Notes under the pieces: model-generated | The model's database searches: none | What the model was told of the DNA's origin: nothing | The model's input: only the letters and a program-made list of their open reading frames with translations | Position numbers and translations under genes: made by a program | Origin: Escherichia coli | GTDB lineage: Bacteria > Pseudomonadota > Gammaproteobacteria > Enterobacterales > Enterobacteriaceae | Strand: one strand, 5' to 3' | DNA length: 64,000 nt | Assembly (NCBI RefSeq): GCF_002854065.1 | Contig: NZ_CP024154.1 | Shown: in pieces, positions 2,777 to 16,899 of the stretch | How the letters are laid out: every line of letters begins with the position of its first letter | Position numbering within the stretch: position 1 is the first letter of the stretch

Positions 2777-3547
2777 ATGAACGAAACGCTGAATGCACTG
2801 ATTTGTCGCCACGCCCGTAACCTGCTGCTGGCGCAGGGCTGGCCGGAAGAGACGGATGTTGACCAGCGAAATCCGAACTATCCGGGCTGGATCAGCATTT
2901 ACGTGCAGCTGGATGCGCCCCGGCTGGCGACGTTACTCGTTAACCGCCACGATGGCGTGCTGCCGCCGCACCTGGCCTCCGCCATTCAGAAACTGACCGG
3001 AACCGTGGCGGAACTTGTACTGTCCGGCAGCCAGTGGCAGGCGCTGCCGGTACTTCCGGCAGACGGAACGCAGGTGTCTTTCCCGTATGCCGGTGAATGG
3101 CTGACGGAGGAAGAAATCAGGGCCGTTCTTGATGCGGTGCACGATGCGGTACGCAGTGTCAGTTGCCGGGTGGCAGAAGATGCGCGGCGTATCAGGGCGG
3201 CGCTGACCACAACCGGTCAGACGTTGCTGACCCGCCAGACGCGCCGCTTTCGCCTGGTTGTGAAGGAAAGCGATTACCCCTGCTGGCTCGATGAAGACGA
3301 CGAAAACCTGCCCGTGGTGCTCGATGCCATCCTGAACCGGGGCGCTCGTTTTTCGTCGGTGGAAATGTATCTGGTCAGTGAGTGTGTGGAGCATATCCTG
3401 TCCAGTGGGCTGGCCTGCGATGTGCTGCGTATACCTGATGAACCGTCCCGTCGCTGGTTTGACCGGGATATTCTGCGGGAGGTGGTCCTGGAAGCCCGGA
3501 CTGAAATCCGCAGCATGGCGGATGCACTGGCGAAAATCCGGAAATGA
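2777..3547 (+). CDS. hypothetical leading-region protein (256 aa)
   Basis: Long ORF with SD AGGGAGA upstream; no recognised motif. Confidence 0.5.
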
Positions 3548-3619
3548 TGACGCTGGCGGGGAAAAATCTCCGCCTTTTCCAGCCGGTCCCCGGAAAGAGC
3601 AAAAGGATGTCGCCGCAGG

Positions 3620-3945
3620 CTCCGCTTTACCCGGCCATGCGGGGCATGGCCTTGTGGGTTTTCAGTTATGTGGCCTCAGCGCCGTGTGCGGGCTGTGCCG
3701 TGCCTCCATCGTAGCCGGGCTTCTGCGGGCGGGTTGCAAGGTAAGGTGAACCGCTGCGGTCACCCGGTCCCTCCTTCCCGTCTGCCGTGATTTTCCGGTC
3801 GTTCACCCGCTCAGATTTCGCGGTCTCACCCTTCAACTCCCGTCAGCCGTGCGCGTCAGGCTGCGGCTTCCCTTGCGCCCTTGCAACCCTGCAGGCCCGG
3901 CAAAGATGGAGGCACGGCACCGCCCGGTGTCGCGGAATATGTGAA
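3620..3945 (+). repeat. repeat family A copy 1: about 330-bp hairpin-rich element, putative single-strand promoter (Frpo/ssi-like)
   Basis: About 95 percent identical to 10567-10892; contains perfect hairpin GGCCATGC-GGG-GCATGGCC; ends about 20 nt before the klcA start. Confidence 0.6.
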
Positions 3946-3962
3946 CAACGGAGGAAAACATC

Positions 3963-4388
3963 ATGCAATATGCGAAACCTGTCACTCTGAACGTTGAAGA
4001 GTGCGACCGTCTGTCTTTTCTGCCTTACCTGTTTGGCCTGGATTTTCTGTATGCCGAAGCGTCTGTATACGCGCTGGCGAAAAAAATGATGCCGGAATAT
4101 GAAGGCGGATTCTGGCACTTCATCCGCCTGCCGGACGGTGGCGGTTACATGATGCCGGATGGCGACCGTTTCCACATGGTGAACGGTGCAAACTGGTTTG
4201 ACCGTACCGTGAGTGCTGATGCCGCAGGCATCATCCTTACCTCCCTTGTGATTAACCGCCAGTTGTGGCTGTACCACGACAGCGGGGATGCAGGGTTGAC
4301 ACACCTGTACAGGATGCGTGATGCGCAGTTGTGGAGCCACATCGAATTTCACCCCGAATGCAACGCGATTTACGCGGCACTTGACTGA
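3963..4388 (+). CDS. klcA: anti-restriction protein, KlcA/ArdB family
   Basis: 141-aa protein with KlcA/ArdB-like sequence and size; SD GGAGGA upstream; leading-region context. Confidence 0.75.
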
Positions 4389-4434
4389 TTAACGGACGGG
4401 GCGGCAATGCCGCCCCTGTAAAGGAGACGAGAAC

Positions 4435-4857
4435 ATGTACTGTACTGTTAAAGAAATCATCCGCGATGTACTGGATACAGACGTGCCGGACAGTGAATGC
4501 GTTTTTGCCGTGGTGCTGACCCGTGGGGATGTGCGTCACATAGCCCGGGACTGGAACCTGTCAGACGATGAGCTGGAAACCGTCATGCAGCGGCTGGACG
4601 ATGCTTTTGTATATGGCGCATGTGACAGAGTTGTTTCCGATATTGTCAATGAACTGATGGAAGAAAAGCGCGCCAGCCGTCATGTGACAGTCCCGGCGGT
4701 GATGCTGGAAAAAGTGATGGCGCTGGCAGGTAGTGAAATGAAGCGCCTGTATGCCGTCGGGAGTGAGAACGGGGGCGACGGTGACGCATTCGTCAGGGAG
4801 GAACTCGAAGCAATGGACGTTGTGTTGCAGGCGCTGGACGGGGAGACGATGTCATGA
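4435..4857 (+). CDS. hypothetical leading-region protein (140 aa), paralog of ORF 2298-2732
   Basis: SD AAAGGAGA upstream; shared MY.T..E, LSD.E..TV..RL.D and R.VTVPA motifs with the 2298 product. Confidence 0.5.
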   Translation: MYCTVKEIIRDVLDTDVPDSECVFAVVLTRGDVRHIARDWNLSDDELETVMQRLDDAFVYGACDRVVSDIVNELMEEKRASRHVTVPAVMLEKVMALAGSEMKRLYAVGSENGGDGDAFVREELEAMDVVLQALDGETMS

Positions 4858-5045
4858 ATATCAGCACAGAAACCCGCGAAATTCTGCGTAATTACAGGGC
4901 CGTGATTAATGCGCGGCGTCGTGAAATGGGGCAGAAACCGCTCACCACCGCGCAGATTGTTGATGAAATCTGCGATTTTGTGGCGAATCAGCAGGCGGTT
5001 TTCCTGGGCGGTCACTACATCCTTCAGGGCAGCAGAAACAGGTGA
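4854..5045 (+). CDS. hypothetical small protein (63 aa), start overlaps upstream stop (ATGA)
   Basis: ORF with translational coupling only. Confidence 0.35.
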   Translation: MNISTETREILRNYRAVINARRREMGQKPLTTAQIVDEICDFVANQQAVFLGGHYILQGSRNR

Positions 5046-5248
5046 TACAGGGGCAGGCGGTGGAGGCCGCCTGTCAGCCCGCGCGAAAACCCCTGGCAGG
5101 CTGACGCCTGCCGGAAACGAGGGGGGCAGCGCCTGCGGCGCTGCCGGCCCGGCTTTCCGGTCAGAAGGTAGTGTATGGCTGTATGCAGGGAACAGGAGTG
5201 ATATTCCGTGACACTGTCACCGTTTCTGGCTGTCTTTTATTGCGCCCA

Positions 5249-5745
5249 CTTCGGCTCCCGGCTGCCTGGCGGCATCCGGTCGTCAGGCCCGACTCCGACG
5301 GGCAGCTGCTGGCGCACCCGCCAGTCTCCGCCGAACCCGCTGGCGCGGTTTCGGGCTGCCGCTACGGTCCGATGCGTGAAAACCCGGCTTGCAGCGACCG
5401 TTCCGGTCGCGCCGCCCCTGTCGCGCCGTGACCTGCGCTCCCTGCACACCTGACGGTGTGTGAGGAAACTGCGCCTGATGGCGCAGCAGTCCTCCCTCCT
5501 GCCGCCACTCCTGCGGCCTGTTTCCCGCTGTGGACTTTCCGGGGGGCAGACGTAACCCCCTCCCGTTCCATCTGTCCAGGGTGAGATGCACCGGCCACAA
5601 AATTTTTAGCCATGAACCCGGCAAAAAATTTTGCGTCCGCCCCCGGACAGCTGCCCCGTGAGGCGGTAAACGGGCCCCCATCGGAAAGGTCCACTGCGGG
5701 GAGAAACCCCTGTGAAGTGGACGGCAGGAGGAGCTTTCGCTCCTC
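5249..5745 (+). repeat. repeat family B copy 1: about 500-bp hairpin-rich element, putative single-strand promoter/ssi
   Basis: Near-identical to 11592-12090 and partially to 14681-15010; multiple perfect hairpins (GCGACCG-TTC-CGGTCGC, ACACC-TGAC-GGTGT); ends about 70 nt before ssb. Confidence 0.6.
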
Positions 5746-5814
5746 TGAAGGGGCACATGAACGTCCCGTCGCCGGTATCCGGTTTATCTCACATCTTTCA
5801 GTCAGGAGGTTCTT

Positions 5815-6342
5815 ATGAGTGCACGTGGTATCAACAAGGTCATCCTCGTCGGGCGTCTGGGCAATGATCCGGAAGTCCGTTACATCCCCAACGGGGGCGC
5901 AGTGGCAAACCTGCAGGTGGCTACGTCAGAAAGCTGGCGCGACAAACAGACGGGGGAAATGAAGGAACAGACGGAATGGCACCGCGTGGTGCTGTTCGGC
6001 AAGCTCGCGGAAGTGGCTGGCGAATATCTGCGCAAGGGCGCGCAGGTCTACATCGAGGGGCAACTCCGTACCCGTAGCTGGGAAGATAACGGTATCACCC
6101 GTTACGTCACTGAAATTCTTGTTAAGACCACGGGCACCATGCAGATGCTGGGGAGTGCACCACAGCAGAACGCTCAGGCGCAACCGAAGCCTCAGCAGAA
6201 TGGGCAGCCACAGAGTGCTGACGCGACGAAAAAAGGTGGCGCGAAAACGAAAGGCCGTGGACGTAAGGCCGCGCAGCCCGAGCCTCAGCCGCAAACGCCG
6301 GAGGGGGAGGATTACGGGTTTTCAGACGACATCCCGTTCTGA
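5815..6342 (+). CDS. ssb: plasmid single-stranded DNA-binding protein
   Basis: OB-fold SSB N-terminus ([18 protein letters not shown]), Gly/Gln/Pro-rich linker and acidic C-terminal DDIPF tail; SD AGGAGG. Confidence 0.92.
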
Positions 6343-6393
6343 TCGGGCTGACTGTGACAACCGCCCCGCCCTGTGCGGGGCATCACCGGAGAT

Positions 6394-6633
6394 ATGAGGA
6401 TGAGCGAATATTTCAGAATACTTCAGGGACTGCCGGACGGCTCCTTTACCCGCGAACAGGCGGAAGCCGTTGCCGCACAGTACCGGAACGTCTTTATCGA
6501 GGATGATCAGGGAACGCATTTTCGCCTGGTTGTCCGCAATAACAGTGGTCTGGTCTGGCGTACCTGGAATTTTGAGGACGGTGCCGGGTACTGGATGAAC
6601 CATGCCATCCGTGATTTCGGGATTCTTAAGTAA
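6394..6633 (+). CDS. hypothetical small leading-region protein (about 79 aa)
   Basis: ORF with ATG at 6394/6400 and purine-rich upstream sequence. Confidence 0.45.
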
Positions 6634-6691
6634 GAGAGGTGCCGGACGCGCGAACGTCCGGCAGGACATAAGCAATTATAAGGGGATGATT

Positions 6692-8650
6692 ATGCCTGTA
6701 ACGAAGTGTGAACCAGAAACCACCCGCAAAGCAAGCCGTAAATCTGCAAAAACGCAGGAAACTGTCCTGTCTGCCCTGCTGGCGCAGACGGAGGAAGTGA
6801 GCGTGCCGCTGGCCTCGCTGATTAAATCACCGCTGAATGTGCGCACGGTGCCGTATTCTGCGGAGTCCGTCAGCGAACTGGCTGAGTCCATTAAGGGCGT
6901 TGGCCTGTTGCAGAATCTGGTCGTGCATACTCTGCCTGGTGACCGTTACGGTGTCGCCGCAGGTGGTCGCCGACTGGCTGCACTCAACATGCTGGCAGAG
7001 CGTGGCATCATTCCGGCTGACTGGCCTGTCCGTGTGAAGGTCATTCCGCAGGAGCTGGCGACGGCGGCATCAATGACTGAAAACGGTCATCGTCGGGATA
7101 TGCACCCTGCTGAACAGATTGCCGGATTCCGCGCAATGGCGCAGGAAGGCAAAACACCTGCACAAATCGGTGATTTGCTGGGCTATTCACCCCGCCACGT
7201 TCAGCGAATGCTGAAACTGGCTGACCTTGCGCCTGTCATCCTCGATGCGCTGGCAGAAGACCGCATCACCACCGAACACTGTCAGGCGCTGGCGCTGGAG
7301 AACGACACCGCGCGTCAGGTGCAGGTGTTTGAAGCTGCCTGTCAGTCGGGATGGGGCGGAAAACCGGATGTGCGGGTTATCCGCAATCTGATTACGGAAA
7401 GTGAAGTGGCGGTGGCGGGGAACAGTAAATTCCGCTTCGTGGGGGCTGATGCCTTCTCGCCAGACGAACTGCGCACCGATTTGTTCAGCGACGACGAGGG
7501 TGGCTATGTGGACTGCGTGGCGCTCGATGCCGCCCTGCTGGAAAAACTCCAGGCTGTCGCAGAGTTCCTTCGGGAAGCCGAAGGCTGGGGATGGTGCGCC
7601 GGACGCATGGAGCCTGTCGGTGAGTGCCGTGAGGATGCCGGAACATACCGCAACCTGCCGGAGCCGGAAGCGGTGCTGACCGAGGCGGAAGAAGAACGTC
7701 TGAACGAACTGATGACGCGTTACGACGCGCTGGAAAACCAGTGTGAGGAATCTGACCTGCTGGAAGCAGAAATGAAGCTGATGCGCTGCATGGCGAAGGT
7801 CAGAGCGTGGACGCCGGAGATGCGTGCCGGAGGTGGCGTGGTGGTGTCCTGGCGTTATGGCAATGTGTGTGTCCAGCGTGGTGTGCAGTTGCGCAGTGAG
7901 GATGATGCGGCTGACGACGCTGACCGCACGGAACAGGTGCAGGAAAAAGCATCAGTGGAGGAAATCAGTCTGCCACTGCTGACGAAAATGTCTTCCGAAC
8001 GCACGCTGGCAGTCCAGGCAGCACTGATGCAGCAACCGGACAAATCCCTGACACTGCTGGCATGGACGCTCTGCCTGAATGTGTTTGGCAGCGGAGCGTA
8101 CAGTAAACCAGCACAAATCAGCCTGGAATGTAAACATTATTCGCTGACCAGCGATGCGCCATCGGGGAAGGAAGGTACCGCATTCATGGCGCTGATGGCA
8201 GAAAAAGCCCGTCTTGCTGCCCTGTTACCGGAGGGATGGTCACGGGACATGACGACATTCCTGTCACTCAGTCAGGAGGTGCTGTTATCCCTGCTGAGTT
8301 TCTGCACCGCATGCAGCCTTAACGGTGTCCAGACCCGTGAGTGTGGTCACACGTCACGCAGTCCGCTTGACACGCTGGAAACCGCTATCGGATTCCACAT
8401 GCGCGACTGGTGGCAGCCGACAAAAGCAAACTTCTTCGGACACCTGAAAAAGCCGCAGATTATCGCAGCTCTGAATGAGGCAGGACTGTCCGGTGCCGCA
8501 CGGGATGCGGAGAAGATGAAGAAAGGCGATGCGGCTGAACATGCAGAGTTCCACATGAAAGACAACTGCTGGGTGCCTGGCTGGATGTGTGCACCACGTC
8601 CACAGACGGATACCACTGAACGCACCGATAACCTGGCTGATGCCGCCTGA
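6692..8650 (+). CDS. ParB-like nuclease-domain protein (about 653 aa)
   Basis: N-terminal ParB/Srx-like region (LIKSPLNVR, GLLQNLVV, AGGRRLAAL, HRRDMHPAEQ); long acidic C-terminal extension; between ssb and psiB. Confidence 0.7.
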   Translation: MPVTKCEPETTRKASRKSAKTQETVLSALLAQTEEVSVPLASLIKSPLNVRTVPYSAESVSELAESIKGVGLLQNLVVHTLPGDRYGVAAGGRRLAALNMLAERGIIPADWPVRVKVIPQELATAASMTENGHRRDMHPAEQIAGFRAMAQEGKTPAQIGDLLGYSPRHVQRMLKLADLAPVILDALAEDRITTEHCQALALENDTARQVQVFEAACQSGWGGKPDVRVIRNLITESEVAVAGNSKFRFVGADAFSPDELRTDLFSDDEGGYVDCVALDAALLEKLQAVAEFLREAEGWGWCAGRMEPVGECREDAGTYRNLPEPEAVLTEAEEERLNELMTRYDALENQCEESDLLEAEMKLMRCMAKVRAWTPEMRAGGGVVVSWRYGNVCVQRGVQLRSEDDAADDADRTEQVQEKASVEEISLPLLTKMSSERTLAVQAALMQQPDKSLTLLAWTLCLNVFGSGAYSKPAQISLECKHYSLTSDAPSGKEGTAFMALMAEKARLAALLPEGWSRDMTTFLSLSQEVLLSLLSFCTACSLNGVQTRECGHTSRSPLDTLETAIGFHMRDWWQPTKANFFGHLKKPQIIAALNEAGLSGAARDAEKMKKGDAAEHAEFHMKDNCWVPGWMCAPRPQTDTTERTDNLADAA

Positions 8651-8704
8651 TGAACAACCACACCGCCCCGCCGGAGACGGGGCGGCAGCAAGGGAGATAC
8701 CGTG

Positions 8705-9139
8705 ATGAAAACTGAACTGACCCTGAATGTATTACAGACCATGAGTGCACAGGAATATGAAGATATCCGGGCTGCCGGAAGTGATGAACGCCGTGAGCTG
8801 ACACACGCCGTGATGCGGGAACTGGATGCGCCGGACAACTGGACGATGAATGGCGAGTACGGCAGCGAGTTCGGCGGCTTTTTCCCCGTCCAGGTCCGTT
8901 TCACGCCTGCCCACGAACGTTTTCACCTGGCGTTATGTTCACCGGGCGATGTCTCTCAGGTCTGGGTGCTGGTTCTGGTGAATGCCGGTGGTGAGCCGTT
9001 TGCGGTGGTTCAGGTGCAGCGGCGGTTTGCACCGGAAGCTGTCAGCCATTCACTGGCACTGGCGGCGTCACTGGATGCGCAGGGGTACAGCGTTAACGAC
9101 ATCATTCATATCCTGATGGCGGAAGGAGGTCAGGCATGA
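8705..9139 (+). CDS. psiB: plasmid SOS inhibition protein B
   Basis: 144-aa product; position immediately upstream of and overlapping psiA; SD AGGGAGA. Confidence 0.85.
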
Positions 9140-9855
9140 GCGCACGTTCACGGGCACTGATCCCCCTCAGCGCAGAACAACAGGCCGCCATGCAGGCGGT
9201 GGCTGTCACAGAACAACGTCGTCGTCAGGGACGCACACTTTCAGCATGGCCTTATGCCACCGCTTTCTTTCGCTGCCTGAATGGCAGTCGCCGGATTTCG
9301 CTGACCGATCTCCGCTTTTTTGCCCCTGCGCTGACGAAGGAGGAATTTCATGGCAACCGTCTCCTGTGGCTGGCTGCCGTGGATAAACTGATTGAAAGTT
9401 TTGGGGAAGTCTGTGTTCTTCCCCTGCCATCCGATGCGGGGCACCGTCTGTTCCCGTCCCTGCCTTTTCGTGAAGGTGAGCGTCGTCGTCAGAAAACCAC
9501 GCTGACAGAGCAGAAATACAGCCGCCAGCGGGAACGTGAGGCAGAACGACGGGAACTGGAATACCAGACATGTTTTGCTCAGGCGCAGATTGACCTTGCG
9601 TTTCATACTCCCGCCACGGTCGGAAGCTGGTTGTCCCGCTGGTCTGGTGTTGTTGAGGAGCATGATCTGGAAACGATTTTCTGGGGGTGGTGCGGGCGTT
9701 TTCCATCACTGTCATCATTTGACCGGTTTTTCTGGCAGGAGGAACCACTCTGGCGGCTGATTTTTGAAGCCGGTGAGGCCGGTCGTGGTGCACCGGTACA
9801 GGTACGTGCACTTGAGCAGTGGATGATCCCGAACAAGCTGGAGAACGTAATATGA
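9136..9855 (+). CDS. psiA: plasmid SOS inhibition protein A
   Basis: 239-aa product, start overlaps psiB stop (ATGA); typical psiB-psiA pair. Confidence 0.85.
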
Positions 9856-10448
9856 TGAAATCAGACGAAAAATACCAGGTTCCCGCGTGGATGCGACCTC
9901 TGTTGCCGTTGCTCTGCAACACCGGGGGGAACGATCCGGAAGAACTGCTGAATGATACAGAAACCACTGCCAGTGCGAATGTTGTCCGTTATGTACTGAT
10001 AGTTGCTGTGCGGTCGCAGGTTGATCTGCTGCAGCTTCTGTACAGGAAAGGGCTGTTGCGCACAGAGATACCAGGTGGCTTTTCACCGGAAGAAGCGCAG
10101 GCACTCCTGGATAATCTGGTGCGCAGCCATATCAGCAGGGCGCTGTCGGGCGAGCGAATGGCAGCCCGTGACAGAAATGCCGATCTGGCCTGGATTGGAC
10201 AGCAACTGGTCGATGCCGCCTGGTTTGTCCGTGCCACACTGGAAGCGCATGGGATGAGCGTCGGAAATGAGAGCCCCCCTGCTCCGCCGGAGACAATGCC
10301 GGACATACAGACACGGGAACTGGTTATGTTGATCAAGCGACTGGCATCATCGCTGAAAGCGGTGAAACCCGACAGTAGCGTGGTGCGTGAAGCGCAGGAC
10401 TGGCTGTGCGACAGAAAACTTGTGGATATCACAGATATTCTCCGGTGA
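9852..10448 (+). CDS. hypothetical leading-region protein (198 aa)
   Basis: ATG 9852 overlaps psiA stop; SD GGAGAA upstream; no recognised motif. Confidence 0.5.
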   Translation: MMKSDEKYQVPAWMRPLLPLLCNTGGNDPEELLNDTETTASANVVRYVLIVAVRSQVDLLQLLYRKGLLRTEIPGGFSPEEAQALLDNLVRSHISRALSGERMAARDRNADLAWIGQQLVDAAWFVRATLEAHGMSVGNESPPAPPETMPDIQTRELVMLIKRLASSLKAVKPDSSVVREAQDWLCDRKLVDITDILR

Positions 10449-10566
10449 ACCAGACATGTATATTTTACGCAGGGACACGCCGATCATGATCGTTTCATAT
10501 CAGGGGTGGTCTGGAGGTCATGCGGCGTGTCCTCTGCACTCGCCGGAATAAGGAAGTCGCCGGCGG

Positions 10567-10892
10567 CTCCGCTTTTACCCGGCCATGCGGGGCATGGCCT
10601 TGTGGGTTTTCAGTTATGTGGCCGCCGTGTCGTGTGCGGGCTGTGCCGTGCCTCCATCGTAGCCGGGCTTCTGCGGGCGGGATGCAAGGTAAGATGAACC
10701 GCTGCGGTCACCCGGTCCCTCCTTCCCGTCTGCCGTGATTTTCCGGTCGTTCACCCGCTCAGATTTCGCGGTCTCACCCTCCAACTCCCGTCAGCCGTGC
10801 GCGTCGGGCTGCGGCTTTCCTTGCGCCCTTGCATCCCTGCAGGCCCGGCAAAGATGGAGGCACGGCACCGCCCGGTGTCGCAGAACATGTGA
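10567..10892 (+). repeat. repeat family A copy 2, putative single-strand promoter
   Basis: About 95 percent identical to 3620-3945; ends immediately upstream of the ardA SD. Confidence 0.6.
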
Positions 10893-10909
10893 CTATGGAG
10901 GATTCGGGA

Positions 10910-11410
10910 ATGTCTGTTGTTGCACCTGCTGTATACGTTGGAACCTGGCACAAATACAACTGTGGAAGCATCGCCGGACGCTGGTTTGACCTGACCACGT
11001 TTGATGATGAGCGCGACTTTTTCGCCGCCTGCCGTGCTCTTCACCAGGATGAAGCCGATCCTGAACTGATGTTTCAGGATTATGAGGGATTCCCGGGGAA
11101 TATGGCCTCTGAATGTCATATCAACTGGGCCTGGGTTGAAGGCTTCCGCCGGGCACGGGATGAAGGCTGCGAAGAGGCTTATCGTCTCTGGGTGGATGAT
11201 ACCGGTGAGACGGATTTTGACAGCTTCCGCGATGCCTGGTGGGGCGAGGCTGACAGTGAGGAGGCTTTTGCGGTTGAGTTCGCCAGTGATACCGGCCTGC
11301 TGGCTGACGTGCCGGAGACGGTGGCGCTCTATTTTGACTATGAGGCGTATGCGCGGGATTTATTCCTGGACTCCTTCACCTTTATTGACGGTCATGTGTT
11401 CCGTCGGTGA
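10910..11410 (+). CDS. ardA: anti-restriction protein ArdA (DNA mimic)
   Basis: 166-aa highly acidic protein (MSVVAPAVYVGTWHKYNCGSIAGRWFDL...); SD GGAGGA; leading-region position. Confidence 0.88.
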   Translation: MSVVAPAVYVGTWHKYNCGSIAGRWFDLTTFDDERDFFAACRALHQDEADPELMFQDYEGFPGNMASECHINWAWVEGFRRARDEGCEEAYRLWVDDTGETDFDSFRDAWWGEADSEEAFAVEFASDTGLLADVPETVALYFDYEAYARDLFLDSFTFIDGHVFRR

Positions 11411-11591
11411 TTTACTCCCCCGCTCCGGCGGGGGTATGGCCTGCCAGGCCGCCGGAAAACCCTGGCAGGCTTACGCCTGCCTGAAATGCAGGAGGGCCGC
11501 GCCTGCGGCGCTGCCCTTCCTGCCCGTCATGGTGTGAGGCATTTTTCTGTTATGTCGTTTCTGTTGTTCTGATTTCCGGAGGCGGGGACAC

Positions 11592-12090
11592 CTTCGGCTC
11601 CCGGCTGCCTGGCGGCATCCGGTCGTCAGGCCCGACTCCGACAGGCAGCTGCTGGCGCACCCGCCAGTCTCCGCCGAACCCGCTGGCGCGGTTTCGGGCT
11701 GCCGCTACGGTCCGATGTCTGAAAAACCAGGCTTGCAGCGACCGTTCCGGTCGCGCCGCCCCTGTCGCGCCGGAAACGGCGCTCCCTGCACACCTGACGG
11801 TGTGTAAGGCCACTGCGCCTGATGGCGCAGTTGTCTGCCCTTCCGCCGCCCCCCCTGCGGCCTGTTTCCCCGCTGTGGACTTTCCGGGGGCTGAAGCGGC
11901 CACAACACGTTTCAGCCGTCCAGGGGAGAGATGTACCAGCCACAAAACTTTTTGCCGCAGGCGTCAAAAACTTTTGCGTCTGCCCCCGGACAACTGCCCC
12001 GTGCCGTGGCAGTCGCTGCCCTATCGGAAAGGTCCACTGCGGGGAGAAACCCCGAAGAAGTGGACGGCAGAAGGGGCTTTCGCCCCTCCG
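11592..12090 (+). repeat. repeat family B copy 2, putative single-strand promoter
   Basis: Near-identical to 5249-5745; ends about 50 nt before ORF 12143. Confidence 0.6.
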
Positions 12091-12142
12091 GGGGAGCAAC
12101 CGGTCGGCCCGGCGACCTGATTCAGCAGAAGGAGACGTTTTC

Positions 12143-12577
12143 ATGACAGTCAGCAGCACGATTTCCGTTTTTTGCCGCGACGGGGTGTTCCGTACCGTTT
12201 ACTGCCACCTGCACGGTGAGCCGACCTGGAACGGTCGCATCCTGCATACCCACTATGCCACTGGTCAGCAGGCCGAAGCCCTGGTTGAACACGGTGATAT
12301 CCGTTGCCTCGGTCCCCGTTGCGACAAACCCGCCGGGCATACGCTTCAGAACCCGGTGGACGGTGTGACGGCTTATTACGGACGTGACAGTGGTTTCCGG
12401 ATGGACAGTGAGGCGCGTGAGTACCGTTCTTTCAGGGAGGCCATCGCCACGGAAAGCACTGAAGAGGTGCGCTTCCATTATGTGTTCATCGACGGCTACT
12501 GGAAGGTGATGTACCGCACGCCGGAAGGCTGGAAGATGAAGTCGCTTGCGCTGGCACTGCGCCGCTGTCCGAAATGA
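12143..12577 (+). CDS. hypothetical protein (144 aa) directly downstream of repeat B2
   Basis: SD AAGGAG 7 nt upstream of ATG; Cys/His-containing; rho-independent terminator hairpin downstream (about 12579-12606). Confidence 0.55.
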   Translation: MTVSSTISVFCRDGVFRTVYCHLHGEPTWNGRILHTHYATGQQAEALVEHGDIRCLGPRCDKPAGHTLQNPVDGVTAYYGRDSGFRMDSEAREYRSFREAIATESTEEVRFHYVFIDGYWKVMYRTPEGWKMKSLALALRRCPK

Positions 12578-12669
12578 AAAAAAGGCAGGGCGATAAACCC
12601 TGCCTCTCTCCGCCGCTGCTTCCCGGCCAGGAAGAGCGGCAGTCATCAACAACATAAGGAGAAATATTT

Positions 12670-12936
12670 GTGAGACCATCAATTATCTTTGCAACGGCTG
12701 AATATGTAAAGCGTCTGCGTGAAGAGTGCCTGCGGGAGAATAAACCCCTGCACCGCCATACCCGCTTCAGACGTCAGGAGCTGGCACAGGATGAGATTAA
12801 CCCGGACGTCCTGGCGATGAGCAGTCATATCGCCAGACGCTGCAGTAAGCAGAAGCGGGTGCGTATCCCCGCGATGAAAGCCAGCGAATGGGGCCACCTG
12901 CTCCGCGCGCTTGAAATTGAGCGGGTCTGCCACTGA
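12670..12936 (+). CDS. hypothetical small basic protein (88 aa, GTG start)
   Basis: ORF only; Arg/Lys-rich. Confidence 0.3.
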   Translation: MRPSIIFATAEYVKRLREECLRENKPLHRHTRFRRQELAQDEINPDVLAMSSHIARRCSKQKRVRIPAMKASEWGHLLRALEIERVCH

Positions 12937-13000
12937 TTAACCCTTGCCGTCTGCCTGTGCAGGCGGCAGGATACGTTCAGACATCTCACCAGGAGGAACC

Positions 13001-13951
13001 GTGAGTAAGAAGAAAAACACCACAACGCCCACGCCGCATGATGCCGCGTTCCGGTCGTTCCTGGCGAATCCCGACGTTGCCAGGGATTTTCTGGAACTGC
13101 ATCTTCCTGCGGAGCACCGGCAGTTGTGCGACCTGTCCACGCTGAAGCTGGAACCCGCCACCTTTGTTGAGCCGGACCTGCATCAGTACGCCAGCGATAT
13201 CCTCTGGAGCGTGAAAACCACCGGGGGTGAAGATGGTTATGTTTATACGCTCATCGAGCACCAGAGCACAGAAAATCTGTACATGCCTTTTCGCATGTTA
13301 CGCTACAGTGTGGCGGCGATGCAGAGACATCTGGAGCAGCACAAAACGTTGCCACTGGTGATTCCGGTGCTGTTCTATCACGGTGAGCGCAGCCCGTACC
13401 CGTACAGCATGAACTGGCTGGACTGTTTTGAGAATCCGGCACTTGCGGCTAAAATATACACAAAGCCGTTTCCGCTGGTTGATATCACTGTCGTTGATGA
13501 CAATGAAATCATGAACCATCGCCGGATGGCCGCACTGACGCTGCTGATGAAGCATATCCGCCATCGTGACATGATGGAGCTGCTGGACAAACTCCCGCAG
13601 GTCATGGTGGAAATTTCAGATGAACAGGTGCGTGTTCTGATTCATTACATCGTTAACGCAGGGGACTCTGTATCACCGGAATTTATGCGGGCGCTGGCTG
13701 AGCGTCTGCCGCAGCATGAGGATAAACTGATGACTATCGCAGAACGTCTTGAGCAAAAAGGTCGCCAGGAAGGCAGGATGGAAGGACGCATGGAAGGACG
13801 CATGGAAGGACGCATGGAAGGACGCATGGAAGGAGCGCTTGAAAAAGCCCTGGCTATTGCGTGCCAGCTTCAGAAAATGGGGATGACGCCGGAGCAGATT
13901 AAGCAGGCTACCGGACTTTCCGATGACGAACTGAAGAACATCACTCACTGA
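13001..13951 (+). CDS. Rpn-family (YhgA-like, transposase_31) PD-(D/E)XK recombination-promoting nuclease
   Basis: N-terminal YhgA-like motifs (HDAAFRSF, ASDILW, YTLIEHQS); SD CAGGAGGA before GTG 13001; C-terminal tail carries (EGRM)n repeat; terminator hairpin at about 13963-13990. Confidence 0.75.
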   Translation: MSKKKNTTTPTPHDAAFRSFLANPDVARDFLELHLPAEHRQLCDLSTLKLEPATFVEPDLHQYASDILWSVKTTGGEDGYVYTLIEHQSTENLYMPFRMLRYSVAAMQRHLEQHKTLPLVIPVLFYHGERSPYPYSMNWLDCFENPALAAKIYTKPFPLVDITVVDDNEIMNHRRMAALTLLMKHIRHRDMMELLDKLPQVMVEISDEQVRVLIHYIVNAGDSVSPEFMRALAERLPQHEDKLMTIAERLEQKGRQEGRMEGRMEGRMEGRMEGRMEGALEKALAIACQLQKMGMTPEQIKQATGLSDDELKNITH

Positions 13952-14013
13952 TGAGAACCACAAAGCCCGGCAAAATGCCGGGTTTTTTTGTCAGCAGGAG
14001 CAGAGCAAACAGC

Positions 14014-14196
14014 ATGACGATTGCAGAACGTCTTATACAGAAAGGTTTCGACGAAGGTTTTAAGAAAGGTGCGCTTGAAGTGGCGCGGGAAGCAGCCTGC
14101 CGGCTGCGGGATATGGGCTGGACGCCGGAACGGATTCAGGAGGCAACCGGACTTTCCGGTGAAGAACTGAAAAAGCTGTTTCCTGATGAGCAGTAG
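14014..14196 (+). CDS. free-standing paralog of the Rpn C-terminal tail domain (60 aa)
   Basis: MTIAERLIQKG...TPERIQEATGLSGEELKKLF aligns with the Rpn tail MTIAERLEQKG...TPEQIKQATGLSDDELKNI; weak SD; hairpin terminator downstream. Confidence 0.45.
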   Translation: MTIAERLIQKGFDEGFKKGALEVAREAACRLRDMGWTPERIQEATGLSGEELKKLFPDEQ

Positions 14197-14226
14197 CCTG
14201 GCATTCTGCCAGGCTGTGAATCACGC

Positions 14227-14478
14227 TCACACATTCCCTGCCGTTTCCCCCAGTTCATTTTCCAGTCGCCTGATGATATCTGCCTTACGCATCCCCTGCA
14301 TGTGAGGCAGCAGGTCACGGACTGAAAGTGCCTGGGTGGTCCTCCAGACGGTGACATCCACCTGTTCCGCATTTTCCCAGGCGTGCCATGTTCTCTGTGT
14401 CACGCCAAATTCTCTGGCCGCTTTTTCGCGTGACCAGAGCATGCTTTTTCGCCAGATTCGCAGTTCCCAGCCGGTCAT
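14227..14478 (-). CDS. helix-turn-helix (XRE/Cro-like) transcriptional regulator (83 aa)
   Basis: HTH signature SREKAAREFGVTQRTWHAWE; AT-rich upstream region with GTGAA-N5-TTCAC inverted repeat. Confidence 0.55.
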   Translation of the reverse strand: MTGWELRIWRKSMLWSREKAAREFGVTQRTWHAWENAEQVDVTVWRTTQALSVRDLLPHMQGMRKADIIRRLENELGETAGNV

Positions 14479-14680
14479 AAAACACCTTTGAAAAAGTGAA
14501 AAAACTTCACTTTATTTTATCATCATAGTCACCAAGTCAGCGCGATAAATAAGAGTGAAAAAGTAAAGAAATTTCATTTTTTTTAGTTGTAGGTGTCGTG
14601 CTGTTTTCTCTGTTTTCACCTGTGCGGGAGTGGGCGTCAGTGACCACCACATGCCATTGTTGTGCCGTCGTTTTTCTTCA

Positions 14681-15010
14681 GTCGCGCCGGATGCGGCGCT
14701 CCCTGCACACCTGACGGTGTGTAAGGCCACTGCGCCTGATGGCGCAGCTGTCTCTGCCTGTCTGCCGCCGCACTGCGGCCTGTTCTCCGCAGACGGACTT
14801 TCCGGGGGTGCATACACGACCACATCCCGTTTCAGTCGTCCAGGGGAGAGATGTACCAGCCACAAAACTTTTTACCGCAGGCGTCAAAAACTTTTGCGTC
14901 TGCCCCCGGACAACTGCCCCGTGACGTGGTGAGCGTCCCCCGTCGGAAAGGTCCACTGCGGGGAAATCCCCGAAGACCCGGACGGCAGAAGGAGCTTCGC
15001 TCCTCCGGGA
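14681..15010 (+). repeat. repeat family B copy 3 (5'-truncated), putative single-strand promoter
   Basis: Matches the 3' two-thirds of copies B1/B2; ends about 45 nt before ORF 15057. Confidence 0.55.
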
Positions 15011-15056
15011 AATGACCTGGCTGACCCGGCAGTCGTGACGATGAGGAGACAATGTG

Positions 15057-15905
15057 ATGAATCAGACTTTACCCACTGCTGACCTGAATACTGCCGGCAC
15101 GACAGATGTTATTCTGTCTGTGGCTATCGACCGCATCATAGCGCAGCGTAACGAAGGTATTGCACTGTTCATGCAGGCGATGGAATGCCTGGCGACAGCG
15201 CGCAGGATTCTGCTCGATGCTTCCGGTGACATTTTTCTCTACGGGTTTGAAGACTGCGTGACTGACTCCGTTCGGTGCATGGATAAACCGGAAGAAGCAA
15301 AAAAGAATATCACCCGTCTTGCCGACCGGAAAATCTGGGATCGCCTGATGACGGATACTGGCATGTACACCTTCATGAGTTCATGCCAGCGTGATGAGTG
15401 GAACAGCCAGCTGATGAGCGACACCTGTCCTGAAATCACCCTGGACAATGTACTGGCAACTTTTCGCTATCTGAATGCCAGCAAGATGCGGACGTTTGAA
15501 CAGGGACTGATTGATGTCTGGCGGAAATTGTCATGGGATTACAGAACCAATAATCCCTGCCGTCTGGGCAAGAAAATCATTATTGAAAACCTGCTGTACC
15601 GCTGGAGTAACGGGCGTGTGACGCTGGACTGCAGCGGACGGGAGGCACTGGATGACCTGGTATGTCCGTTTTATCTACTGGAGGGACGCAACGTTCCTGA
15701 CTTCAGGAACAGCATCGGGGCGCAGTATGGTGAATATCTCGGGAACGGCGATAATGTCGGTAAGCTGTTAGAAGGGGAATATTTTACGGTGCGTGGCTAC
15801 CAGAAAGGGACCGTACACATTGTCTTTAAGCGTCCTGACCTTGTTGAAAAACTGAATGATATTATTGCACGGCATTATCCTGGTGCATTGCCGCCACGAG
15901 TCTGA
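15057..15905 (+). CDS. hypothetical protein (283 aa); oriT-proximal plus-strand gene of the leading region
   Basis: SD GAGGAG 7 nt upstream of ATG 15057; directly behind repeat B3; terminator hairpin at about 15911-15945. Confidence 0.55.
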   Translation: MNQTLPTADLNTAGTTDVILSVAIDRIIAQRNEGIALFMQAMECLATARRILLDASGDIFLYGFEDCVTDSVRCMDKPEEAKKNITRLADRKIWDRLMTDTGMYTFMSSCQRDEWNSQLMSDTCPEITLDNVLATFRYLNASKMRTFEQGLIDVWRKLSWDYRTNNPCRLGKKIIIENLLYRWSNGRVTLDCSGREALDDLVCPFYLLEGRNVPDFRNSIGAQYGEYLGNGDNVGKLLEGEYFTVRGYQKGTVHIVFKRPDLVEKLNDIIARHYPGALPPRV

Positions 15906-15989
15906 TTAAACAGAAAAGCCCTGGTATTTATGCCGGGGCTTTTTTTCTGTAATCATCATAATCTCAGAACACGATGTGACATTGTCACA

Positions 15990-16331
15990 TCAATTGTTGT
16001 TCATATCGATGCCATCTTTCCTGCCTGAATCTGTCTTTTTAGGTGCTGTTTTAGAGGAAGAACGGCGGGATGGTTTTTTCGATTCTGCTTCCCGAATAAT
16101 GTCACGAAGTGCTTTCTCTCCTACTTCATACCCTGCATTTTTGAGCGTGTCACGAACATCTGCCAGTGTATAACCCTTTGTCCTTACCAGGACAATGATG
16201 TCATCACGAATGGCATCAAGAAAATCACGCAATGTTTTCCGTTGAGCGGTGAGGTCCGGCAATTCCGATAAGGCAGCTTTTGCCAGCTGGATGTCATCAT
16301 CTGAGTAAAATTTTTTAGAAGCCATTGGCAC
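15990..16331 (-). CDS. hypothetical small basic protein next to oriT (possible DNA-binding protein)
   Basis: ORF of 113 aa with Lys/Arg/Ser-rich C-terminus; stop codon lies within a perfect 20-bp palindrome. Confidence 0.4.
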   Translation of the reverse strand: MPMASKKFYSDDDIQLAKAALSELPDLTAQRKTLRDFLDAIRDDIIVLVRTKGYTLADVRDTLKNAGYEVGEKALRDIIREAESKKPSRRSSSKTAPKKTDSGRKDGIDMNNN

Positions 16332-16439
16332 TTTCTCTCTGTTTTATGTTGAAGCCTGATTTTATCACCAAAACTGCCCCTGGCAGGGCTGCGCCCTGCC
16401 TCTGCCGTCTGCATAAGACTATGATGCACAAAAATAACA

Positions 16440-16545
16440 GGCTATAATTGACCGAAAAACGGGACAGGATGTGGGAATGTCGGACCGCGCACGCGCACTC
16501 AGACATTCCCCACCTGGTCAGGGCTTTGCCCCGACACCCCGGTAA
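16440..16545. other. oriT: origin of transfer (oriT) with inverted repeats, immediately upstream of nikA
   Basis: GGGAATGTC...GACATTCCC inverted repeat flanking a GC-rich core, plus GGTCAGGGCTTTGCCCCGAC; position and orientation relative to nikA-nikB and the leading region. Confidence 0.65.
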
Positions 16546-16555
16546 GGAGCAGACC

Positions 16556-16888
16556 ATGAGTGAGAAGAAAACCCGAACGGGCAGTGAGAACAGGAAGAGA
16601 ATTGTAAAATTCACGGCGAGATTCACGGAGGATGAGGCTGAAATCGTAAGAGAAAAAGCGGAGTCAAGTGGACAGACGGTTTCAACATTTATACGAAGCT
16701 CTTCACTGGATAAGGTGGTTAACTGCCGTACTGACGACCGTATGATTGATGAGATTATGCGTCTTGGCCGCCTTCAGAAGCATCTGTTTGTGGAGGGAAA
16801 ACGCACTGGTGATAAGGAGTATGCAGAGGTTCTTGTTGCCATTACTGAATATGTCAATGCTCTGCGAAGAGACTTAATGGGACGCTGA
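16556..16888 (+). CDS. nikA: relaxosome accessory protein NikA (ribbon-helix-helix)
   Basis: 110-aa product immediately upstream of the relaxase; SD AAGGAG. Confidence 0.85.
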   Translation: MSEKKTRTGSENRKRIVKFTARFTEDEAEIVREKAESSGQTVSTFIRSSSLDKVVNCRTDDRMIDEIMRLGRLQKHLFVEGKRTGDKEYAEVLVAITEYVNALRRDLMGR

Positions 16889-16899
16889 GATAACTGCTG

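Follow-up and report, generated by a model that had tools for sequence, protein, structure and literature searches.

YgaA, the 198-amino-acid product of a gene at positions 9852-10448 (+ strand) of the Escherichia coli contig NZ_CP024154.1, of which a stretch of 64,000 nucleotides (the window) was analysed here, is, judged from its sequence, a mosaic of three independently occurring modules. Outside YgaA, they are encountered chiefly in accessory proteins that temperate phages and phage-plasmids encode in their early operons. The gene, ygaA, is correctly delimited, already annotated, and previously uncharacterised; the present analysis adds a link, at the level of modules, to the early proteins of phages, together with the recognition that the N-terminal (N) module represents a large, unannotated, and structurally unassigned family. 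With a rough probability of 45%, YgaA is, in our opinion, a non-enzymatic early protein of the recipient cell that binds a host factor and helps the plasmid to become established.

The coding sequence, the three modules (N, middle or M, and C), and the linker are located as follows.

9852-10448, + strand: ygaA coding sequence, 198 amino acids plus stop (22.1 kDa, isoelectric point 5.3).
9852-10067, + strand: N module, amino acids 1-72, with helices at 12-20, 29-33, and 44-65.
10068-10256, + strand: M module, amino acids 73-135, a helical hairpin with helices at 79-93 and 105-132.
10257-10301, + strand: linker, amino acids 136-150, acidic and proline-rich, predicted to be disordered (predicted local distance difference test score, pLDDT, below 50 at 134-150) and differing in length among homologues.
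10302-10445, + strand: C module, amino acids 151-198, two predicted helices, mildly basic.

Modular composition of YgaA

When 1.84 billion cluster representatives were searched exhaustively with phmmer, 255 matches at E<=0.001 were obtained, which fall in separate blocks of the query; a search of a word index of proteins yielded nothing beyond close relatives and numerous truncated alleles. Mapped by domain, the retrieved proteins comprised single modules (N only in 76 proteins, M only in 54, and C only in 10) and the combinations NM (19), MC (16), NMC (15), and NC (4). The modules found apart from one another include stand-alone N proteins of 70 amino acids, a 108-amino-acid protein of IncI2 plasmids, in which M follows an Ea22-type N-peptide, and protein P0098, which has N and C and lacks M. 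YgaA can be grouped only in part and at the level of modules, namely with the unnamed gp43-type family through N, with a group of Ea22-position proteins through M, and with phrog_660/924 through its C-terminus. An internal duplication, suggested by a MAFFT alignment that put NTGGNDxEEL of the N module on LPGGFSxEEA of the M module, was rejected: hhalign gave it a probability of 3% over nine columns, and the two segments have only a short motif in common.

The N module is 57% identical, over 70 amino acids, to the N-terminus of gp43 of phage N15. Its motif reads P11-x-W13-M14...N23-T24-G25-G26-N27...E30...D35...N43...R46...Q56...L59-L60 in YgaA. Among 97 sequences of the family, T24, G25, G26, and N43 are invariant, while P11, W13, M14, N23, N27, E30, L32, D35, R46, Q56, L59, and L60 are conserved in at least 90%; every invariant or nearly invariant column, including L32, is present in YgaA. 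A profile search with the N module found at least 588 proteins, mostly stand-alone proteins of 66-100 amino acids from metagenomes, the genes of which sit in long arrays of small co-oriented open reading frames (ORFs) of the phage-early-region type, and 42 IMG/VR viral contigs encode the module. The N module has no match in PHROGs v4, and neither does N15 gp43 at E<=1e-3.

In N15, cro and a gene for a Q-like activator precede gene 43. The gp43 locus of N15-like phage-plasmids retains the N module but exchanges its C-terminal half (gp43 of N15 itself; P0098, with N and C; P0297, with N and a coiled coil). The early operon of N15 and N15-like elements (loci L003-L005, L009, and L025-L027), which follows cro and the Q-like gene, shares several families with conjugative leading regions. 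The families encoded in this operon are a fusion of RNase T with Lar (restriction alleviation), the N-module protein, YubE (PF27407, a family of the F leading region), and orphan DNA methyltransferases. Across 51 N-module loci, genes for the RNase T-Lar fusion, Q-like protein, Cro, and repressor recur as neighbours, but since many of these loci are N15-like relatives, the neighbour statistics do not constitute independent evidence. In two metagenomic phage contigs (L014, 871-3717, and L015, 198-3005), a stand-alone N gene of 76 amino acids abuts an 871-amino-acid gene for a primase-polymerase/AAA_25 helicase; the gap from the stop of the first to the start of the second is 0-1 nucleotides (nt) in these independent contigs.

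The M module carries the motif PGGF(S/T)xEEA...LVRSHIS+ALSGE+M...DADLxWI...AAWFV+A. Over 67 amino acids, it is 60% identical to ORF12 of the Shiga toxin (Stx) phage P13374, a 298-amino-acid DUF551 domain-containing protein encoded in the early-left region between ssb and xis/int, by Ead/Ea22-like genes, an anti-repressor gene, and a methyltransferase gene. The M segment is annotated as 'Ea22' in phage PhiR5_1, and in relatives DUF551 usually comes after the module. The 108-amino-acid ORF, in which the Ea22-type N-peptide (MTTFT...ALASLEAEAPN) is joined to an M module 58.6% identical to that of YgaA, is present in about 514 IncI2 plasmids. In the IncI2 plasmid pE15017_00, for example, this ORF (L019, 5863-6189) is located beside TraL and mobC. 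Both M and C are common to YgaA and the lambdoid prophage proteins P0091-P0095 (47-49% identity), and the gene encoding M and C is located in a lambdoid nin-type region. The C module has a weak match to the C-terminus of a P22-like EaA. In PHROGs, only the C-terminal 48-99 amino acids of YgaA matched, in both cases at the C-terminus of the profile (phrog_660, E=1e-7; phrog_924, E=4e-6; function unannotated).

Family searches and predicted structure

YgaA is without a significant match in Pfam, NCBIfam, PADLOC, or the sequences of the PDB. At E<=1, it matches neither the PsiA (PF06952) nor the PsiB (PF06290) profile, whereas the adjoining genes do so at 1e-41 to 1e-112. No match to the known anti-restriction families (ArdA, PF07275; ArdB/KlcA; ArdC; Lar) was obtained in Pfam or NCBIfam, and none to Ead/Ea22 (PF13935) or DUF551 (PF04448) in Pfam, while the last two domains were found in the M-module-only relatives P0104, P0115, P0122, and P0138. 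As these profiles gave no match, YgaA falls outside the Psi, Ard, Ead/Ea22 (PF13935), and DUF551 families. The defence-system models of PADLOC-DB yielded zero families at E<=1. A match to TilS_C, with E=0.09 over 16 residues, was dismissed as noise. The family searches detected no enzymatic, helix-turn-helix (HTH), or DNA-binding signature, and with an isoelectric point of 5.3 and a net charge of about -5, YgaA is only mildly acidic and is not a strongly acidic DNA mimic of the Ocr type.

The full-length AlphaFold2 (AF2) model was built from an alignment with chimeric rows, in which the N, M, and C fragments come from different proteins; plain and X-padded fragments aligned out of register. 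Because of these chimeric rows, the inter-domain geometry of the model is meaningless (predicted TM-score, pTM, 0.39). The model is all-helical, with pLDDT values of 84-93 in N, 68-79 in the helix-loop-helix of M, and 51-59 in C, and in it the M module looks like a hairpin of the coiled-coil type. When modelled alone from 97 natural sequences, the N domain behaved as an autonomous compact fold (pLDDT 92.3, pTM 0.79). Foldseek found no significant match of the full-length model in the PDB (best E=1.9), and a search of the PDB with the N-module profile came back empty. The high-confidence model and the empty PDB searches together thus characterize the N domain as a confidently predicted small fold that has no recognisable solved relative. 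The AF2 models, along with the absent family matches, support the view that YgaA would be a non-enzymatic helical protein.

The original prediction, made from the letters of the window, held that the function of this gene cannot be read from sequence. This is essentially right, no family or fold having been matched, but the sequence does hold information that the letters alone could not reveal, namely the three modules shared with early accessory proteins of temperate phages. The homology and structure searches assigned YgaA to no known non-defence family, and in this respect the original prediction stands.

The ygaA gene and its conservation

The ORF listing and the translation of the window give a frame of 198 codons plus a stop. 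The signals at its start, as read from the sequence, are as follows.

9840-9855, + strand: translational coupling signals, comprising GGAG at 9840-9843, which is 8 nt 5' of the ATG, and the ygaA ATG (9852-9854) over the psiA TGA (9853-9855), the two sharing ATGA in a 4-nt overlap.

An identical 4-nt overlap of psiA and ygaA is annotated at loci L001, L017, and L018, which belong to IncI-gamma/K1 and IncI1/B/O plasmids. At a DNA identity of at least 90%, ygaA was matched in 1,719 plasmid records (1,690 of them with a query coverage of at least 80%), 1,620 of which were typed as conjugative; the hosts are mostly Escherichia, Salmonella, and Shigella. At this identity, the gene is restricted to the IncI complex (IncI1, IncI-gamma/K, and B/O backbones), and both its position and its coupling to psiA are kept across these backbones. 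Pairwise Nei-Gojobori estimates of the ratio of nonsynonymous to synonymous substitution rates (dN/dS) are 0.22-0.29 at dS of about 0.09-0.13, to be compared with 0.04-0.10 for ssb, 0.14 for the parB-like gene, and 0.11-0.19 for psiA at the same loci. These values indicate that YgaA is under purifying selection, with somewhat weaker constraint than its neighbours. The plasmid spread, the conserved overlap, the dN/dS values, and the existence of segment homologues at 43-60% amino acid identity in unrelated phage and plasmid proteins establish ygaA as a genuine protein-coding gene rather than a chance ORF. An antisense ORF of 253 codons at 9206-9967 (- strand), which covers most of psiA and the start of ygaA, found no support and is in all likelihood a fortuitous frame within GC-rich coding sequence.

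The intact frame of 198 amino acids is the dominant allele (cluster P0004, 2,438 members). In plasmid pO145-13514 (L016, 4501-5098), ygaA is frameshifted; the 598-nt match is unannotated there. Clusters of truncated and frameshifted alleles suggest that the gene has been lost repeatedly in some lineages.

With regard to nomenclature, the annotation of pN441 names the gene ygaA, in the style of R64, and its counterpart in pESBL, a plasmid of E. coli O104:H4, is O3K_25907, 'YgaA/Hp15'. One record labels this gene 'eaa'. In some papers, 'ygaA' is the name of an unrelated chromosomal gene of E. coli.

Operon and single-strand promoter context

The gene ygaA is the last cistron of a unit ssb - ykfF-like - parB-like - psiB - psiA - ygaA in the leading region of an IncI-complex plasmid. 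The neighbouring features that bear on this are listed below.

5249-5771, + strand: Frpo/ssi-type (presumed class 1) repeat 5' of ssb, with repeat families D2-D5 and D8 common to 11592-12114 and 14681-14929.
8702-9139, + strand: psiB (PF06290, E=1.6e-63).
9136-9855, + strand: psiA (PF06952, E=5.5e-41; NF010258, E=1.4e-112).
10560-10900, - strand: long hairpin element ('ardA repeat') between ygaA and ardA, 97% identical to a second copy; the fold is that of the minus strand.
10910-11410, + strand: ardA (PF07275, E=1.9e-29).

The overlap of psiB and psiA is also 4 nt long; together with that of psiA and ygaA, it points to a translationally coupled chain psiB-psiA-ygaA. Repeat elements flank the unit, and the next promoter element follows 126 nt after the ygaA stop, for which reason ygaA is considered the last cistron. 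The order and strand of the genes in the window, with ygaA between oriT and the maintenance region and transcribed towards oriT from the strand that also encodes ssb, psiB, and ardA, agree with those of pN441, in which nikA/nikB lie downstream. No known RNA was found by Rfam within 3000-17000.

The Frpo/ssi-like element is present in three copies with blocks 80-97% identical, one just 5' of ssb and two nearer oriT. In new transconjugants of pESBL, RNA sequencing showed six leading-region operons to be upregulated, by about 500-fold at most, via single-stranded DNA (ssDNA) promoters, which fall into class 1 (ssi1-3, Frpo-like), class 2 (5' of klcA and ardA), and class 3 (5' of M.EcoGIX) (PMC12672017). 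The operon of the single-strand promoter ssi3 has been described as comprising ykfF, the parB-like gene, psiB, psiA, and ygaA (Benz et al., bioRxiv 10.1101/2022.07.06.498992). Both reports concern near-identical IncI1 plasmids. On the strength of this literature, the element at 5249-5771 is presumed to be the single-strand promoter of the ssb...ygaA unit, and its three copies are presumed to be class 1 ssi1-3 (PMC12672017; bioRxiv 10.1101/2022.07.06.498992).

The copies of the second repeat, about 330 nt long, lie at 10560-10900, 5' of ardA, and at 3612-3950, 5' of a KlcA/ArdB-like ORF that starts near 3968; positions 10574-10873 are 97% identical to 3626-3925. When folded, the minus (template) strand of the ardA repeat forms a single long hairpin (-92 kcal/mol, z=-5.1). 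The element matches the description, published in 2025, of class 2 ssDNA promoters (PMC12672017) and, as such, would both delimit the ygaA transcription unit at its 3' end and serve as the promoter of ardA.

Thus, the gene of 198 amino acids between psiA and ardA, with its start over the psiA stop, is borne out by the ORF, the ATGA overlap, and the profiles of its neighbours, just as the original prediction had it, and the ardA repeat that it placed directly after the gene is real. Its claim of co-expression with psiB and psiA is well founded, though still inferred, from the conserved 4-nt overlap and the composition of the ssi3 operon (bioRxiv 10.1101/2022.07.06.498992). The description of these two genes as an anti-SOS pair holds for PsiB, for which anti-SOS activity has been shown, but not for PsiA, for which none has (PMC8406263).

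Two further features of the region deserve mention. A 682-amino-acid ParB-like protein with ParB_N and HTH_ParB domains is encoded at 6602-8650, between ssb and psiB, in the place that YfjB occupies in F. The F protein, a ParB-like protein likewise encoded between ssb and psiB, is HerB, a transient reprogrammer of host transcription (PMC13370423). An ORF of the Rpn family (recombination-promoting nuclease/transposase_31) at 12944-13951 holds an (EGRM)x5 run, and its C-terminal segment recurs at 72-77% DNA identity in the adjoining small ORF 13951-14196 (repeat families D7 and D10).

Proposed function and alternative explanations

According to the function proposed at the outset, YgaA would appear in the recipient only minutes after the DNA has entered, translated from a transcript that starts at the Frpo/ssi-type promoter 5' of ssb; its production would be transient and accompanied by that of SSB, the ParB-like protein, PsiB, and PsiA. 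YgaA would act stoichiometrically by binding a host protein. The strongly conserved N domain, in which the NTGGN loop is invariant, is the putative effector surface, while the M hairpin may be an oligomerisation scaffold, by analogy with, not homology to, the coiled coil of lambda Ea22. The net outcome would be easier establishment of the plasmid in some recipients, which would make YgaA a conditionally useful establishment or counter-defence factor like PsiB, ArdA, and the ParB-like protein. In transposon-insertion sequencing (TnSeq) of pESBL, ygaA scored 1.00 as non-essential, 0.00 as essential for maintenance, and 0.00 as required for transfer, with the same result for psiB, psiA, and ardA. 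That its usefulness is conditional is suggested by this shared classification as non-essential and by the existence of frameshifted and truncated alleles.

A number of points weigh against the establishment function. The dN/dS of ygaA exceeds that of the adjoining genes, and frameshifted or truncated alleles are found in several lineages (clusters P0029, P0032, and P0046; a form of 156 amino acids has 187 members). The link to anti-defence genes amounts to guilt by association; the viral contexts, dominated as they are by related N15-like elements, are not independent observations, and the same neighbourhoods hold non-defence genes such as ssb and, in F, the gene of the ParB-like host reprogrammer HerB (PMC13370423). 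Confidence in the model is modest for M and low for C, and the oligomerising role suggested for M is an analogy only. Lastly, the pro-lysogenic phenotype of Ea22 cannot be transferred to YgaA, as the Ea22 proteins of lambda and Phi24B share no sequence with it.

The leading alternative, although we regard it as rather unlikely, is that YgaA is a dedicated anti-defence inhibitor of a specific recipient immune system, whether restriction-modification or another system directed against mobile genetic elements, and that phages use its modules likewise. The surroundings of the gene are suggestive in this respect: ygaA forms part of an anti-defence island, where its neighbours are KlcA/ArdB-like, methylase, PsiB, and ArdA genes, leading regions in general are enriched in anti-defence genes (PMC11541004), and, in phage-plasmids and other viral contigs, N-module genes are found one to four genes away from Lar-type domains and orphan methyltransferases. 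As noted above, however, such associations are not independent of one another. Likewise, a dN/dS somewhat above that of the neighbours and dispensability in permissive laboratory matings, which ygaA shares with ArdA, would fit an inhibitor of this kind, but YgaA resembles no known anti-restriction or anti-CRISPR family in Pfam and lacks the strong acidity of a DNA mimic (isoelectric point 5.3, charge about -5).

The strict and conserved translational coupling to psiA, along with membership in an operon with ssb and psiB, raises the possibility that YgaA is a partner of PsiA, PsiB, or SSB that tunes RecA, SSB, or SOS signalling on the incoming single strand. Deletion of psiA slightly lowers mating-induced SOS, and PsiA is without an assigned activity, which leaves room for accessory partners (PMC8406263). 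The N-module genes found directly 5' of a primase-helicase gene in metagenomic phage contigs would also fit. Nevertheless, we deem this explanation improbable, as the psiB-psiA pair is widespread in IncF and other plasmids without ygaA, ygaA at an identity of at least 90% is limited to the IncI complex, and phages without psi genes have the three modules as well. In F-like plasmids, other genes come after psiA.

A regulator that damps transfer or leading-region expression through protein-protein or protein-DNA contacts is, in our view, quite improbable: transfer did rise in one host strain when the ssi3 operon carried loss-of-function mutations or engineered deletions for which a polar effect on ygaA is predicted, but these changes centred on the parB-like gene and did not single out ygaA (bioRxiv 10.1101/2022.07.06.498992); YgaA, moreover, is acidic and has no HTH or DNA-binding signature, and TnSeq of pESBL classed its gene as neither enriched nor required. 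There is equally little chance that YgaA is a selfish mosaic passenger, in which recombined phage modules hitch-hike without benefit to the plasmid, for although the extreme mosaicism with modules recombined in many combinations, the frameshifted and truncated alleles in several lineages, and the non-essentiality in TnSeq are compatible with such an origin, the clear purifying selection (dN/dS 0.22-0.29), the dominance of the intact frame of 198 amino acids (P0004, 2,438 members), the position and psiA coupling kept across IncI1, I-gamma/K, and B/O, and the strong conservation of the N domain over a large family all speak against it.

A more far-reaching proposal, which we regard as rather doubtful, may also be put forward. 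The N module would then represent a large early-protein family, with members of about 70 amino acids in phages, phage-plasmids, and IncI plasmids, and a new class of inhibitors directed at a host defence or at some pathway for sensing ssDNA or foreign DNA; YgaA would be its conjugative-plasmid version, to which an oligomerising hairpin and a second tail for binding have been added. Should the N domain prove to neutralise a host system, hundreds of phage proteins would gain an annotation in one step; otherwise, ygaA is an ordinary, conditionally dispensable accessory gene.

Plasmids of the IncI complex are major carriers of ESBL (extended-spectrum beta-lactamase) and other resistance genes, ygaA is present in about 1,700 sequenced plasmids, and most leading-region genes are functionally blank. 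A gene apparently built from early modules of temperate phages links plasmid establishment with the early takeover of the host by phages. It also offers a tractable target, the N domain of 70 amino acids with its invariant NTGGN loop, which is without annotation or known fold. We consider ygaA a reasonable, though not exceptional, candidate for functional work.

Comparison with known systems

N15 gp43 and its N15-like counterparts share with YgaA the N-terminal 70 amino acids (57% identity) and the same W-M / NTGGN / N..R / Q..LL motif, which is always N-terminal. The gene of gp43 is an early-operon gene that follows cro and the Q-like activator and stands among restriction-alleviation and methylase genes. 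Unlike ygaA, however, it belongs to a phage-plasmid rather than to a conjugative plasmid, and the C-terminal half of its product is unrelated to that of YgaA.

The Ea22-position proteins (P13374 ORF12, the PhiR5_1 'Ea22', and phrog_60/660/924) resemble YgaA in the M module (55-60% identity over about 67-79 amino acids), and some of their prophage relatives share both M and C (47-49% over about 128 amino acids). They also have a tripartite layout, with an N part, a helical middle, and a C part, and are encoded in early-left or nin regions. The differences are that YgaA has neither PF13935 nor PF04448 and that its N part is of the gp43 type. In addition, Ea22 proteins end in K/RGE (PMC7093339), whereas YgaA ends in ...ITDILR.

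The Ea22 proteins of lambda and Phi24B (the latter vb_24B_6c), exo-xis proteins that have been studied by experiment, have no detectable sequence similarity to YgaA (best E=0.73). They are likewise early, modular, and non-enzymatic, with a short N part, a coiled-coil middle, and a C domain, and are thought to act via a host partner (PMC10834534; PMC7093339); the coiled coil of lambda Ea22 oligomerises the protein into a tetramer (PMC10834534). As this likeness is architectural and contextual only, the Ea22 phenotype, in which lysogeny and host survival are favoured, was rejected for YgaA.

The 108-amino-acid ORF of IncI2 plasmids (WP_063078684.1-type) is, like ygaA, a gene of conjugative plasmids; it shares the M module at 58.6% and lies near relaxosome genes. 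It differs in having an Ea22-type N-peptide in place of the gp43-type N module, in having no C module, and in its IncI2 backbone with the mating-pair formation type MPF_T, on which TraL and mobC are its neighbours.

PsiB, ArdA, and HerB/YfjB, in contrast, are related to YgaA neither in sequence nor in fold. What they have in common with it is the region in which they are encoded, presumed zygotic expression from ssDNA promoters, and dispensability in permissive laboratory matings, and it is in this setting that these three proteins act on host proteins or on the chromosome soon after entry.

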